Below, piece by piece: positions 2,521 through 8,469 of a stretch of DNA of 21,851 nt. The translations under genes were made by a program, and so were the position numbers. How positions within the stretch are numbered: the stretch's first letter is position 1; every line of letters starts with the position of its first letter. The notes beneath the pieces were generated by a model. The model had not been told where the DNA came from, searched no databases, and worked only from the letters and a program-made list of their open reading frames with translations. The stretch lies in IMG/VR virus record IMGVR_UViG_2547132277_000002; one strand, given 5' to 3'. This DNA comes from a virus. Taxonomy: Duplodnaviria; Heunggongvirae; Uroviricota; Caudoviricetes.

Positions 2521-2596
<76 letters not shown>

Positions 2597-2598
2597 AC

Positions 2599-2675
2599 TG
2601 GACCGCCACCGGGGACTCGAACCTCGCACACTCAACTTAAAGAGTTGACGCTCTTTCCTGATGAGCTAGTGGCGG
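2599..2675 (-). tRNA. tRNA of uncertain identity (manual fold gives anticodon UUU, Lys-like, with atypical C at position 33)
   Basis: 77 nt, CCA encoded; acceptor CCGCCAC/GTGGCGG (C1-G72), D-arm GCTC-ATCAGGAAA-GAGC, anticodon stem TCAAC/GTTGA, loop UCUUUAA, T-loop TTCGAGT. Needs tRNAscan-SE. Confidence 0.5.
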
Positions 2676-2676
2676 T

Positions 2677-2752
2677 TGGTGGCCCTTGCTGGATTTGAAC
2701 CAGCGACCTGGCGATTATGAGTCGCTCGCTCTCACCACTGAGCTAAAGGGCC
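2677..2752 (-). tRNA. tRNA with CAU anticodon, ileX/ileZ-like (tRNA-Ile2; elongator Met not excluded)
   Basis: 76 nt, CCA encoded; GGCCCTTTAGCTCAGTGGTGAGAGC...CTCATAA...GGTTCAAATCC...AAGGGCCACCA closely resembles E. coli tRNA-Ile2 as recalled; anticodon loop CUCAUAA. Confidence 0.7.
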
Positions 2753-2761
2753 GGGCGCAGG

Positions 2762-2790
2762 ATAATAACGTTACGAAATCAATGTTGCAA
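2762..2790 (-). promoter_or_regulatory. Sigma70-like promoter driving the tRNA array / late operon (candidate PR-prime)
   Basis: Minus-strand -35 TTGCAA (plus 2785-2790), 17-bp spacer, -10 TATTAT (plus 2762-2767); predicted start just upstream of the first tRNA (5-prime end at 2752). Confidence 0.45.
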
Positions 2791-2871
2791 GCATTCAAAA
2801 ATCACTTGGTTAAAAATCACCCTTATCTCCTCCACCAGCGCATTCACCATGTCTATCCGAGATAAGTGACA

Positions 2872-2894
2872 CAAAAAAACCCGCTTGATGCGGG
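2872..2894 (-). terminator. Hairpin terminator separating the cargo operon from the tRNA/late promoter
   Basis: CCCGC-TTGAT-GCGGG stem-loop at 2880-2894 preceded by an A7 run on plus (T7 after the stem on minus); only TTT follows on the plus strand. Confidence 0.5.
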
Positions 2895-2942
2895 TTTAAG
2901 TTGTGTGGCGAAGCGACCACTCTTAACAGATTAAGATAGTTT

Positions 2943-2972
2943 TTGCGTACGCGTTAGTGATTTTTTCATAAT
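2943..2972 (+). promoter_or_regulatory. Candidate sigma70 promoter for the plus-strand three-gene cargo operon
   Basis: -35 TTGCGT at 2943-2948, 18-bp spacer, -10 CATAAT at 2967-2972, ~45 bp upstream of the probable start codon. Confidence 0.4.
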
Positions 2973-2984
2973 TATCTGTATCCT

Positions 2985-3896
2985 GTGGCTATTTCTCTTG
3001 CGCAAAGGATGCTTTTGATGACGCAGCAACTCGAAAACATGCCAATAACAGAAATCGAAATTGCCTACGGTGGAGAGGCATACGCAGATAATCAGATCGA
3101 CGCGAAAACATTAGGCGAAGCCTTAACCTCTCTTAGTGCCCTGATTGAACACGCCGAAAAAATAATTAATGGCGAAACAGCAGAGCCGAAAGTCAACATC
3201 AAGGCAACAAAAGAAGGTTCATTTACTTTGCTTGTTGCTGTGATGGGGAGCATAAAAACTATTAACGCCCTTGGCCTCGTTGCAGGTGGTGGAGTTGCCG
3301 CAGGTGGCGTACTCGGGATAATCGAATGGCTCAAAGGGCGTAAAATCAGCTCCATTGTCGTCGATGAACAAAAAGATACAGCAGAAATCGAAGTGGATGG
3401 TGAGAAGGTTAAATGCAGTAACGACATTCAAAAATTAATAACCAGTCCAATCATCCGAAAAGAACTGGATAAATTAATCTATAAACCCCTGCAGACTGAA
3501 AAACCATCCACGTTCTCAGTTTCACAGCAGAAGCATAAGGTAGTCAGGGTGACGCAAGCTGAAGCAGTAAGTTTTAAAACTGCAAAATCCACCTTTGTCG
3601 AGAAAACGCACGTAACGACACGCCAAGCTAATGTACATTTTGCTAATGTTCGATTCAAGCAAGGCAAAAGCTGGGATATCATCCTGCCAAATGGCGAAGA
3701 AGTTAGCGCATCTATGAAAGATGAGGCTTTTCTTGAACGGGTTGAACACAACCAAGCAGCATTCTGTAAGGGTGATCTTTTTGTTGTAGAACTGACAGAA
3801 ACAACAAAAGAAACAAATGGCGCGCTGTCTAAACCACGCTATAGTATTACTAAGGTTATACGCCACAGAGCGGCGGCAGATAGGAAACTACTTTAA
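2985..3896 (+). CDS. Cargo gene A: unknown protein with a central Gly-rich hydrophobic segment (probable start ATG 3018, 292 aa)
   Basis: ORF-track start 2985 is GTG; ATG at 3018 has AAGGA 8 nt upstream. Hydrophobic stretch FTLLVAVMGSIKTINALGLVAGGGVAAGGVLGIIEWL; no motif I can assign. Opposite strand to every flanking phage gene. Confidence 0.6.
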   Translation: MAISLAQRMLLMTQQLENMPITEIEIAYGGEAYADNQIDAKTLGEALTSLSALIEHAEKIINGETAEPKVNIKATKEGSFTLLVAVMGSIKTINALGLVAGGGVAAGGVLGIIEWLKGRKISSIVVDEQKDTAEIEVDGEKVKCSNDIQKLITSPIIRKELDKLIYKPLQTEKPSTFSVSQQKHKVVRVTQAEAVSFKTAKSTFVEKTHVTTRQANVHFANVRFKQGKSWDIILPNGEEVSASMKDEAFLERVEHNQAAFCKGDLFVVELTETTKETNGALSKPRYSITKVIRHRAAADRKLL

Positions 3897-3899
3897 ATC

Positions 3900-4145
3900 A
3901 TGTCAATCCTAAGCATTATGCTTTACATCACTGTATTCATGGCTGTCGCAGCGACGGTCAGATATGCTGTGCTTAGGTTCTTGGTTTGGGTAAAGCCGAA
4001 TGCGTATATTGAACTAACCTACACCGATCCTGAAGGCAGAACCGCTAAAAGGAAAGTCAGCGTTAGAAACGAAAATGACGCAGAAGAGTTGGCGCTACTG
4101 CTACGCGAACTCAAAACTCGCAACGAAGCAAGTGCAGGAAGGTGA
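3900..4145 (+). CDS. Cargo gene B: small protein with N-terminal transmembrane helix and charged C-terminus
   Basis: 81 aa; ILSIMLYITVFMAVAATVRYAVLRFLVWV hydrophobic; starts 4 nt after gene A stop. Confidence 0.55.
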   Translation: MSILSIMLYITVFMAVAATVRYAVLRFLVWVKPNAYIELTYTDPEGRTAKRKVSVRNENDAEELALLLRELKTRNEASAGR

Positions 4146-4532
4146 ATGGCGAACACTAAATCCTACCTGGCAATGCAGGCATGGTTTACCACCCTTATCA
4201 CTGCGGGATTGAATTTCCTTTTTGACTGGCTTCCTCAATTAGCCTTCTTCAAATCATTGGCGCCTGGAGCTGCTGTCGGCTTATCTCATGTGGTAATTCT
4301 TCTTATCGCTTACATAGGTTTGCCTACGCTTAATGATGTAAGAATGAAAAGGGAAATAAAAACGGCCAGAAAATTCATCACGAACTGCCTGGCCAACCCT
4401 AACCTAACACCAGACCAAATTGCGCACTACAACCAATGTCTTATCGATCTAGACAATAAGCTATTAAAAAACATAAATATTCGTATTGATGCTTTATCTG
4501 ACGCCGAATCGAAAGCTCAAGCAAACGAGTAG
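4146..4532 (+). CDS. Cargo gene C: predicted membrane protein (two hydrophobic helices) with a soluble C-terminal ~70 aa
   Basis: 128 aa; TGA-ATG junction with gene B; SD GGAAGGTGA upstream; helices WFTTLITAGLNFLFDWL and AAVGLSHVVILLIAYIGL. Confidence 0.6.
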   Translation: MANTKSYLAMQAWFTTLITAGLNFLFDWLPQLAFFKSLAPGAAVGLSHVVILLIAYIGLPTLNDVRMKREIKTARKFITNCLANPNLTPDQIAHYNQCLIDLDNKLLKNINIRIDALSDAESKAQANE

Positions 4533-4545
4533 TAACAGTCATAAC

Positions 4546-4902
4546 TTATGATAGAATCAAGCATATACATCCATCAATAAAGCCTAATGCAGTTTGCAGC
4601 TCCTTTCTTATAGTTCCATCTGAGCACCTGCGTTTCTTCGCGATTGAGCGTAGAGAAACACCAATAACAAAGTGAGCTATGAGCAGCTCATATTCCTCTG
4701 GTTTATACTTTCGCAACCGAGCCACACAACCGTCTATCATGATGCCTTCATCATCATCACACTGGAGACGTGACTTTTTGCCATGTGGCAAAAGCCTCTT
4801 GAAGCCCGCTGCTATCGGTTGCCAATCGACACCGCTATTTTCTGCTGCAGCCCATGCCCCCCAGCGATCTAAAACCTCATACATATCACGCCCCATTACC
4901 AT
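4546..4902 (-). CDS. Late-gene antiterminator Q (phage 21 / DLP12 QuuD-like family)
   Basis: 118 aa; motifs VLDRWGAWAA, IAAGFK, Cys-rich segments; conserved position downstream of rusA; resembles QuuD-type Q as recalled. Confidence 0.7.
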   Translation of the reverse strand: MVMGRDMYEVLDRWGAWAAAENSGVDWQPIAAGFKRLLPHGKKSRLQCDDDEGIMIDGCVARLRKYKPEEYELLIAHFVIGVSLRSIAKKRRCSDGTIRKELQTALGFIDGCICLILS

Positions 4903-6694: not shown

Positions 6695-7816
6695 CTAGTG
6701 AATTTTGCCTCTAAGAGTTCGGTAAGATTGTAGTGAAACAACATCACCACTTCCTGGCAGTTCATGAACCGCAGGAAGATCATCTCCTACTAACTCATAA
6801 AAAATGTCCACTTCTATATCCATTTCATCAGCTATACGCTGTGGGTCGTATCCTAACTCTTCAAATAAAAACGATAAAGCCCGACGGAATAACTCAGGAC
6901 GCTCATGAGGGATTAGATAATCTTCTTTTTCATCAATAGCTTCCCCTTTCCGTTTCAACCCCATAAATGCAGTTCTGTACTGCTCATCAGTCAAAAGTCC
7001 TAATTGATGAGCCCTGTAAACAATGGCAGCCTTACTTACTTTCCATGTCAACTTAAATTGGCTTAGTCCCTGCCAATTTATCCTCCCCCCCACAGGTCTT
7101 GGAAAATATTTCGCCATCGACGTTCTGGGAAGCAACAGAGCAGAGGCAAAACGGTTTGCCTGGGATTCAGTTAATCTATCCCCAGTAGAAATTCCTTCAT
7201 GAAGAATCAAATGGGCAACCTCATGAGCAATATCAAAGCGTTGCCTACAAGGTGAATTTTTAGCTGTATTTCGAACAATAAAAGGCCTTCGTAGAGGAAC
7301 AGACAGTGCATCTACTTCATCCGAAACGGAGTCAAATGAAGTAACAAACGCCCCAAGTTTCTCGGCAAGGCGAGTCATATTTTCAATTGGGCCAAAGCCT
7401 AAGCCCCACTCAATACGACATTTTTCTGCCGCTCGCTCGATATCTTCTTGTGTATGGACACGAAATTCAGGAAATCGAACAGGTGACAAATTAAGGTTAT
7501 CTTCAAATACATCAATAAAACGACGATAAAACTCAGCCTTAGCGAGTGTTGATAGCTTCGTTGACATCCTTGTCGAGGCGCGTTTACGAAAATGTACAAT
7601 CTCTTCATTAACAGGAGAATGTTCCTGCCCTTCGAAAAAGGCGGGCTTCACGCGCAAAACCTCGGCTAATTTATTTATAAGCTCTGGGGATGGAGTAGCT
7701 GAACCAGACTCCAGTCGCTGTACATACTGGCGTGTTTTTTCAACCTTCTCAGCAACCTGCTCCAGAGATAGCTCGTGATACAGACGAGCAAGTCTTAAAT
7801 TAGTACCGTTAAACAC
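6695..7816 (-). CDS. Fused XRE-family HTH regulator / ImmA-IrrE (COG2856) zinc metallopeptidase
   Basis: 373 aa; N-terminal HTH LRLARLYHELSLEQVAEKVEKTRQYVQRLESG; HEXXH zinc motif in DIAHEVAHLILHEG; GTG start 11 nt after the upstream gene stop. Confidence 0.8.
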   Translation of the reverse strand: MFNGTNLRLARLYHELSLEQVAEKVEKTRQYVQRLESGSATPSPELINKLAEVLRVKPAFFEGQEHSPVNEEIVHFRKRASTRMSTKLSTLAKAEFYRRFIDVFEDNLNLSPVRFPEFRVHTQEDIERAAEKCRIEWGLGFGPIENMTRLAEKLGAFVTSFDSVSDEVDALSVPLRRPFIVRNTAKNSPCRQRFDIAHEVAHLILHEGISTGDRLTESQANRFASALLLPRTSMAKYFPRPVGGRINWQGLSQFKLTWKVSKAAIVYRAHQLGLLTDEQYRTAFMGLKRKGEAIDEKEDYLIPHERPELFRRALSFLFEELGYDPQRIADEMDIEVDIFYELVGDDLPAVHELPGSGDVVSLQSYRTLRGKIH

Positions 7817-7826
7817 ATTTCACCCA

Positions 7827-8420
7827 CTATTTGCTATTTTGTTTCTTTTCCTTCTCAGTCTTAGACGCACTGATAGGTTCTAGTTCGATAGGTACCGGTG
7901 CTGGAGGTACATCATCGACAGAGTTCAGCATAACAACACGGTCCGCACCATATGTCCAAGTTGACACGATCTCACCAAACACGTTATAGCCATTAAAAAT
8001 GACTCTACCACCCTCGCCTTCAAATTCAGGCTTTTCAACCACAAAGCGATGCATAGTTGGAGTAGTCTCCTCTGACTCAAAGAGTCGATCAGCATCATTT
8101 CTTTTGAAAAAACCGCGTTTCTTGGGGTTATCTGCGTCATCAGTAAAGAAACGAATAGGGACATTCCCAATTGAAAACGTAAGATCCATGCCAGGATTAA
8201 GTAGTCTTAACCAGTCATATGTCTTTCGTACGCACATTTGTAGCAACGCCTGCCGCTGACGCCCAAATGTACAACCACCACGAGTGTAATTATCATCATA
8301 GGGCGATGACAATAACTCATGAGTAATATCCTGTATCCTGAGCAACTCCTCAGCTATAATGGTTAAACGCACCTCTGTTAACTCAGGAAAGAACTCCCAA
8401 GGGAATGGATGGTTCTGCAT
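7827..8420 (-). CDS. Unknown protein, first gene of the two-gene cassette (197 aa from ATG 8420; ORF track extends to 8468)
   Basis: ATG at 8420 has GGAG 8 nt upstream; the longer start would overlap promoter-like TTGACA boxes. No recognisable domain. Confidence 0.55.
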   Translation of the reverse strand: MQNHPFPWEFFPELTEVRLTIIAEELLRIQDITHELLSSPYDDNYTRGGCTFGRQRQALLQMCVRKTYDWLRLLNPGMDLTFSIGNVPIRFFTDDADNPKKRGFFKRNDADRLFESEETTPTMHRFVVEKPEFEGEGGRVIFNGYNVFGEIVSTWTYGADRVVMLNSVDDVPPAPVPIELEPISASKTEKEKKQNSK

Positions 8421-8469
8421 AGACACTTCTCCGCCTAATCCGTGCAAAAAACGACTTTTGTCAACCAAG

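Follow-up and report, generated by a model that had tools for sequence, protein, structure and literature searches.

Within a 21,851-nucleotide stretch of tailed-phage DNA (Caudoviricetes; IMG/VR record IMGVR_UViG_2547132277_000002), referred to throughout as the window, three adjacent plus-strand genes, here called A, B and C, form a conserved operon carried as dispensable cargo between the antiterminator gene Q and the late-control region of a DLP12/Qin-like lambdoid prophage. We rate this cassette as uncharacterised prophage-borne defence or exclusion cargo. We judge with moderate confidence that it most likely serves against phages, as a module expressed in the lysogen and associated with the membrane that works through abortive infection or exclusion. 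The genomic contexts in which the triad occurs support a defensive function well, and the mechanism proposed below is one that we infer. The family of A has already been catalogued as a defence candidate; the obligatory three-gene structure, the anatomy of the slot with its empty and deletion forms, the range of contexts, and a corrected reading of the neighbouring hairpin and promoter are new here.

A conserved and mobile gene triad

The three open reading frames (ORFs) are not chance occurrences. When they are compared with the copies in Citrobacter and Plesiomonas, a comparison in which synonymous sites are near saturation, A has a ratio of nonsynonymous to synonymous substitution rates (dN/dS) of 0.035-0.055, B one of 0.06-0.10 and C one of 0.08-0.10. 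Strong purifying selection acts on all three. Because of these ratios we regard B as a genuine gene despite its omission from RefSeq, whose feature table for this locus lacks it and where it usually goes unannotated. Every complete locus examined shows the genes in the order A (288-308 amino acids, aa), B (71-89 aa), C (120-140 aa), each either adjoining or overlapping the next, and the triad is found in Orbaceae, Tatumella, Pseudomonas bohemica, Citrobacter, Plesiomonas, Enterobacter, Morganella, Pantoea and metagenomes. A scan of genome contigs returned four loci, and further contexts were collected through exact-protein look-ups. The arrangement is kept even where the first protein is only 25-30% identical to A, and distant counterparts of B share its architecture. 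By profile search the A family comprises 3,631 clusters at 50% identity (2,119 at E<=1e-10), nearly all of them with proteins of about 290 aa.

In the window the genes are tightly coupled, as an earlier note on this DNA, made from the sequence alone, had described: the ATG of C directly abuts the TGA of B, and the gap between A and B measures 3 nt (3897-3899) rather than the 4 nt given there. The ATG at 3018 is backed as the start of A by the 292-aa form in RefSeq and by homologue lengths of 288-300 aa, and the sequence AAAGGA lies 8 nt before it. All three genes share one reading frame, separated only by TAA-ATC and by TGA, and the same geometry is seen in Citrobacter and Plesiomonas; the shared frame is probably a coincidence, since the genes of distant relatives overlap in other frames. 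The cassette also stands out by its strand, a feature that the note had recognised correctly, as the long ORFs around it lie on the minus strand, from the lysis genes (1.1 kb) up to about 12.8 kb.

Beyond this prophage the triad occurs in a wide range of settings, several of them occupied by defence genes. In Tatumella it adjoins Drt8 and its nuclease partner. At loci L028 and L029 it lies between type I restriction-modification (R-M) genes (hsdR/hsdS/hsdM) and HEC-01, with another hsdS beyond, and at locus L025 it has a DNA methylase gene and large unknown genes as neighbours. Plesiomonas and Pseudomonas have the triad directly downstream of an S24 cI-type repressor gene on the same strand; the position downstream of cI is the one that rexAB takes in lambda. 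It is also found in reverse orientation between Q and the lysis genes in combination with three Q families (PF06530, PF03589 and PF06323), and in Enterobacter it ends a small, non-phage integrative element. A-B-C is a mobile accessory operon that lies outside the core programme of the phage. Among complete E. coli genomes, 37 of 5,426 carry the complete cassette. Enterotoxigenic E. coli isolates are among the carriers of the identical cassette.

The earlier note had found no assignable motif in any of the three proteins, and for A this does not hold. A comparison with PADLOC, one of the checks proposed in the note, matches A to the PDC-S42 model (PDLC05015) with an E value of 3.3e-53, residues 22-299 aligning with profile positions 4-294 of 302, and distant A proteins (from loci L007, L025 and L028) match the same model. 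PDC-S42 belongs to the 145 'guilt-by-embedding' candidates of Payne et al. (bioRxiv 10.1101/2024.01.29.577857), genes taken from within BREX, DISARM or type I R-M loci. A matches it over nearly its full length, and the context of L028 and L029 is of the kind from which the PDC systems were derived. Unlike PDC-S42, which is defined as a single gene, A is always followed here by B and C, for which PADLOC has no model. A also matches phrog_3243 and NCBIfam NF053583, 'LAPAL motif-containing putative phage structural protein', at 225.3 bits (cutoff 60), and RefSeq gives the NF053583 name to a protein identical to A.

The cargo slot and its late-control element

Comparison with a relative that lacks the insert, a further check proposed in the note, fixes the borders of the cassette. 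In the prophage of E. coli EC9682 (locus L003), whose Q is 98% identical, the Q stop directly abuts sequence equal to window positions 2872-2971, and this is the empty form of the site. Mapped against it, the reverse-oriented three-gene cargo proposed in the note does lie between Q and the late region, and an insert of ~1,573 bp separates the direct repeats CATAATTAT and CATAACTTAT (Table 1). The locus in E. coli TUM9757 (L002, 4061-4207) was considered as an empty site as well; its alignment shows a deletion derivative instead, in which a natural deletion of 1,480 bp between two 8-bp microhomology copies of GATGCTTT (window positions 3008-3015 and 4488-4495) has left the 5' end of A joined to the 3' end of C. 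The cassette can thus be lost by microhomology-mediated deletion. Given the empty form, the deletion derivative and its small number of E. coli carriers, the cassette is dispensable cargo.

Other prophages fill the same slot differently. The cargo is always antisense to the late genes and always lies between the late-control element described below and Q, and in some prophages, that of EC9682 among them, the slot is empty. DLP12 has nmpC plus IS5 in the identical slot and orientation, TUM1226 (L033, 3641-6033) has a pair of genes named by RefSeq 'nucleoid-associated anti-phage protein' and 'anti-phage protein', and mEp460, SfIV, Stx2a_1447 and a Stx1 phage account for at least four more sets, unrelated, each of one to three genes. 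In both Stx2a_1447 and SfIV the cargo combines a soluble protein of ~350 aa and a small membrane protein with several passes. Profile searches with A, B and C against the other slot cargos returned nothing, and those cargos are unrelated to ABC. From these differing contents we conclude that ABC is one cargo of a variable, reverse-oriented slot.

The earlier note had assigned the cassette to a site between Q and the lysis genes that is shared with nmpC and stx. The likeness to nmpC stands, in exact slot and orientation; stx, by contrast, is in a different slot, downstream of the element on the late-gene strand, and tRNAs and a methylase gene likewise lie on that opposite side. In EC9682, an ADP-ribosyltransferase toxin gene and a subtilase-family AB5 B-subunit gene (2567-3853), downstream of the element on the late-gene strand, occupy the stx position of Stx phages. 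The resemblance of ABC to nmpC/lc of DLP12, also antisense to the late genes, ends at position. The nmpC gene encodes a single outer-membrane porin and has its own upstream region of ~370 bp, whereas the start of ABC is ~45 bp away from the element and its three protein products showed neither a signal peptide nor an enzyme domain. Defence cargo tied to late-operon control has a precedent in Tai/Ati of phage phi80, a prophage defence gene beside the Q-controlled late operon whose expression drops when Q is made (PMC11364771). The phi80 proteins are unrelated to ABC, their mechanism is tail-assembly interference, and Tai has its place upstream of the module for packaging, and not between Q and the late-control element.

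The left border of the slot is a conserved element of ~95 bp that we presume to comprise the late promoter, leader and terminator of this Q family. It is present in 82 phage records and in 3,356 of the 5,426 complete E. coli genomes (~62%), and its position is constant: Q lies on one side of it, whether or not cargo intervenes, and the first late genes on the other. A diverged copy of its right-hand part lies upstream of A in Plesiomonas, where the cassette is next to cI, and had suggested that the element might be part of the cassette; its occurrence without ABC in those phage records and genomes rules this out. In two Morganella prophages (L020 and L021, with Q families PF03589 and PF06323) an identical 120-bp region (6881-7000) lies upstream of A, so that the cassette there travels with its own upstream region and not with a DLP12-type element.

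This distribution changes the reading of the hairpin upstream of the cassette, which the earlier note had taken for an insulator of the operon. On the minus strand seven T's come after the hairpin, on the plus strand only three, and other phages have a minus-strand hairpin with a T-run at the equal relative position even where the sequence differs. It is a minus-strand terminator of the phage element, present also in phages without cargo and in those with other cargo, and its position suggests a late-leader terminator resembling tR'. A 36-aa 'antiterminator' coding sequence in RefSeq (2810-2920, minus strand) passes straight through this hairpin and for that reason is probably an annotation artefact. 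Rfam searches of the element and of the leader of A found nothing beyond tRNAs.

The promoter that the note had assigned to the cassette is present as a string, though not as a feature of the cassette alone. It straddles the junction between phage and cargo: its -35 is inside the conserved phage element, and its -10 owes its last T to the cargo junction, the corresponding hexamer of the empty site being CATAAC. Hexamers of the TAnnnT type lie 17-18 nt past the same TTGCGT in three loci, Stx2a_1447 and mEp460 with other cargo and Citrobacter with ABC, and this sequence pattern makes a junction promoter for the cassette plausible. Promoter-like sites were no more frequent in the promoter scan than expected by chance. 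The sequence TTGATG-18-TATCAT (4577-4548), in the 3' end of Q, was considered as the late promoter and is probably not, because it would sit upstream of the variable cargo and the scan is at chance level.

Candidate function and rival readings

The earlier note had described hydrophobic helices in each of the three proteins. Only B and C are clear membrane proteins, by hydropathy and, for C, by its structural model; A is modelled mainly as a soluble protein of alpha/beta and small beta-barrel structure with one glycine-rich hydrophobic segment. The fairly confident AlphaFold model of A (predicted local distance difference test, pLDDT, 81; predicted template modelling score, pTM, 0.73) lays out an N-terminal alpha/beta domain, a glycine-rich hydrophobic segment and small beta-barrel domains of the OB/SH3-like type. 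Fold searches, a check proposed in the note, were uninformative: they found only generic small beta-barrel matches and uncharacterised phage proteins, with no virion-protein fold; comparison with viral models returned uncharacterised phage proteins only, and a sequence search for related solved structures returned none. No signal peptide, enzyme domain or transporter domain was detected in A. The hydrophobic segment (residues ~79-105, INALGLVAGGGVAAGGVLGIIEWLKGRK) is rich in small residues and ends in a basic LKGRK, model confidence is lowest there, and equivalents of LGLVAGGGVAAGGVLGIIEWLKGRK are present in 30 of 30 diverse family members. Sub-threshold matches to DUF7946 (PF25678) cover the N-terminal ~90 residues of 12 of 24 close relatives (E<1) and 8 of 30 distant ones (E<=0.01), A of the window not being among them; the best score among members scanned singly is 25.6 bits, against 27 required.

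Hydropathy gives B an N-terminal transmembrane helix; the short basic tail behind it is probably a beta-hairpin plus a helix. In C two hydrophobic helices at the N-terminus precede two further helices, C too has a basic tail, and its model is all-helical (pLDDT 72; helices 3-28, 30-57, 62-82 and 89-127). The PHROG families that B and C match (phrog_27630 and phrog_26468) are both of unknown function.

Mobile, dispensable, placed at lysogen-expressed sites and found beside defence genes, the cassette is best fitted by a prophage anti-phage module. The combination of a soluble barrel protein bearing a glycine-patch helix with two small membrane proteins suggests a membrane-acting abortive infection or exclusion system that would be functionally RexAB-like. 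In such a system, B as a single-pass and C as a two-pass protein would reside in the inner membrane with their basic tails towards the cytoplasm, and A would dock on both. The OB/SH3-like barrels of A appear suited to binding a phage-derived ligand, and its conserved hydrophobic, glycine-rich helix with LKGRK at the end might enter the membrane or disturb it. On sensing an incoming phage, the complex might then compromise the membrane or block entry. Transcription would begin at the junction-straddling promoter and run convergently into Q, and upon induction early transcription through Q would oppose the cassette. Only 13 bp separate the end of C from the convergent Q stop, and no terminator was detected in between on the plus strand; transcription of the cassette and early transcription through Q should therefore collide.

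Two known systems bear on this proposal. Like ABC, RexA/RexB of lambda is prophage-encoded and combines a soluble protein of ~280-290 aa with small inner-membrane protein(s), and in Plesiomonas and Pseudomonas the triad occupies the rexAB position. In the window, however, it is at the Q slot and not by cI, and it has three genes rather than two. No Pfam family at E<=0.1 suggests RexA or RexB, no RexA chain is among the structural matches listed, and ABC is not in the Rex family. EACC1, which is known from a caspase-associated system, has a C-terminal fragment that forms membrane pores and a hydrophobic helix with a central patch of glycine and small residues (Kaur et al. 2020, PMC7159879; Evans et al. 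2025, bioRxiv 10.1101/2025.11.14.688446). The conserved hydrophobic helix of A has a central patch of this type and is likewise followed by beta strands. A matches Pfam EACC1 (PF19953) weakly over residues 81-140, at 15.6 bits against a gathering threshold of 23.6, and matches at E<1 to the pore-forming part occur in 8 of 24 close relatives, the best at E 5.8e-5 and all below the Pfam threshold. A is about three times the length of EACC1.

Several observations weigh against the anti-phage reading. PDC-S42 itself still has candidate status in its source paper, and a literature search found no paper that mentions PDC-S42, DUF7946, the 'LAPAL motif' or the RefSeq accessions of A and C. For B and C no model matched in PADLOC, Pfam or NCBIfam, and PADLOC 2023 gave no matches for the other slot cargos. 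Since the slot also holds a porin gene, residence in it does not prove defence. The candidate promoter, TTGCGT-18-CATAAT, falls below the threshold of a consensus scan and is weak by consensus. None of 30 distant A members matches EACC1 at E<=0.01, and there is no protease partner beside A, whose neighbours are B and C (small membrane proteins without a protease domain) and Q; for these reasons, together with the sub-threshold scores, we do not place A in the EACC1 family. Finally, at locus L024 and in an Orbaceae prophage the triad is just upstream of a holin gene or lysis genes on the same strand, a position that fits a lysis-related role too.

The porin in DLP12 also points to another reading, in which the cassette is a lysogenic-conversion module that alters the host envelope or physiology, as the NmpC/Lc porin or Bor do, for reasons that have nothing to do with phage attack, and its defence neighbours are coincidental. 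The identical slot, the membrane proteins B and C and the candidate stage of any defence role are all in keeping with it. We nevertheless consider it improbable. The triad is also found outside prophages, beside Drt8 and between type I R-M and HEC-01; it takes the cI-downstream position that is used by exclusion genes; and A shows neither a signal peptide nor an enzyme or transporter domain.

An accessory that tunes holin and endolysin timing, or lysis inhibition, of the carrier phage has a low probability in our estimation. The cassette runs antisense to the late operon when in the Q slot, and so would not be expressed along with the lysis genes; it is also found after cI, in the non-phage integrative element, and in R-M and DRT islands without nearby lysis genes, and close relatives of the same prophage do without it. 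These facts stand against the resemblance of B and C, as small membrane proteins, to holins and antiholins, and against the proximity of the cassette to such genes, reverse-oriented beside the holin in Morganella, Citrobacter and this window and co-oriented in L024 and the Orbaceae prophage.

Slightly less credence still goes to a role in addiction (toxin/immunity) or in stabilising lysogeny, through a membrane toxin with small immunity proteins, for instance, or mainly through read-through transcription antisense to Q. Purifying selection acts on all three proteins in contexts that have no Q downstream, which argues for a Q-independent protein function, and scans of A, B and C in Pfam, PADLOC, PHROG and NCBIfam gave no match to a toxin-antitoxin family. 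The terminator-less 13 bp between C and the convergent Q stop, the tightly coupled junctions and the frequency of small membrane proteins among toxins are what speak for it. That A is a virion structural protein, as the NF053583 name would have it, is very improbable: against its 225 bits (cutoff 60) and the presence of most A genes in prophages stand a location outside every structural module and antisense to the late operon, absence from close relatives of the same prophage, occurrence in non-phage defence islands, the lack of any literal LAPAL-like string (LAP.L or L.PAL) in 30 family members, and the lack of a virion fold match.

It is tempting to extend the anti-phage reading to a joint proposal, unlikely as it is in its entirety, that ABC represents a new and very widespread three-component anti-phage class (at least 3,600 clusters at 50% identity) and that the slot between Q and the element serves lambdoid prophages generally as a hotspot, not described so far, for defence cargo expressed in the lysogen. 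In a three-component system of this kind, A would be a beta-barrel sensor with a latent EACC1-like helix, released or gated by two membrane partners and not by a protease.

The surrounding prophage and wider significance

Table 1. Coordinates of the cassette, its borders and related slot loci (window positions unless a locus is named)
Feature	Position	Strand	Remarks
Gene A	3018..3896	+	292 aa, ATG start; upstream GTG at 2985 as alternative, giving 303 aa
Gene B	3900..4145	+	81 aa; ORF and phrog_27630 match, hydropathy, homologues, dN/dS
Gene C	4146..4532	+	128 aa; ORF and phrog_26468 match, hydropathy, all-helical model, dN/dS
Antiterminator Q (PF06530)	4546..4902	-	Convergent with C, 13 bp from the C stop; right border of slot
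Conserved ~95-bp late-control element (presumed role)	2872..2967	-	Phage backbone; left border of cargo slot
Intrinsic terminator hairpin	2877..2897	-	T-run on minus strand
Candidate cassette promoter	2943..2972	+	-35 TTGCGT 2943-2948, 18-nt spacer, -10 CATAAT 2967-2972
Left direct repeat CATAATTAT	2967..2975		Flanks cargo; defined against EC9682 empty site
Right repeat copy CATAACTTAT	4540..4549		Overlaps Q stop codon 4546-4548
Loci with other slot cargo	L013 2636-4199; L014 2219-3641; L015 2146-3072; L030 2641-4748; L032 3644-5105; L033 3641-6033		

Outside the cassette region the window represents a lambdoid prophage of the Rac/Qin-like type, whose repressor gene is near 12.8 kb and whose integrase gene is at 19.2-20.3 kb. 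Beyond Q, genes for RusA and then DUF968 follow on the minus strand; the other flank holds, on the same strand, genes for a P21-type holin (1935-2150), DUF1327 and a lysozyme. The lysozyme ORF (1111-1560, 149 aa) stops short of the end of its Pfam profile, with positions 2-110 of 125 matched, and on the late-gene strand no long ORF is present in the initial ~1.1 kb of the window; a truncated or interrupted lysis module is possible. Between the late-control element and the holin gene are four minus-strand tRNA genes (2443-2752), Gly-TCC, Thr-TGT, Lys-TTT and one with a CAT anticodon that ARAGORN calls Met and RefSeq Ile, and a promoter-like TTGCAA-17-TATTAT (2790-2762, minus strand) is directly upstream of them. 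The same prophage contains a further defence locus (6695-8468, minus strand), in which a 373-aa protein with helix-turn-helix and M78-peptidase domains matches RmrA in PADLOC (E 4e-201) and its 213-aa neighbour matches RmrT (E 7e-92).

If the triad protects against phage, PDC-S42 would change from a single-gene candidate into a defined three-gene system with thousands of relatives, and detection tools could gain two partner families, B and C. The slot, sharply bordered, known in an empty form and with at least seven alternatives for its contents in E. coli, offers a simple way to harvest lysogen-expressed cargo, that of Stx phages included. Moreover, prophage-borne exclusion in enterotoxigenic E. 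coli carriers may shape which phages, therapeutic ones among them, are able to infect these bacteria.

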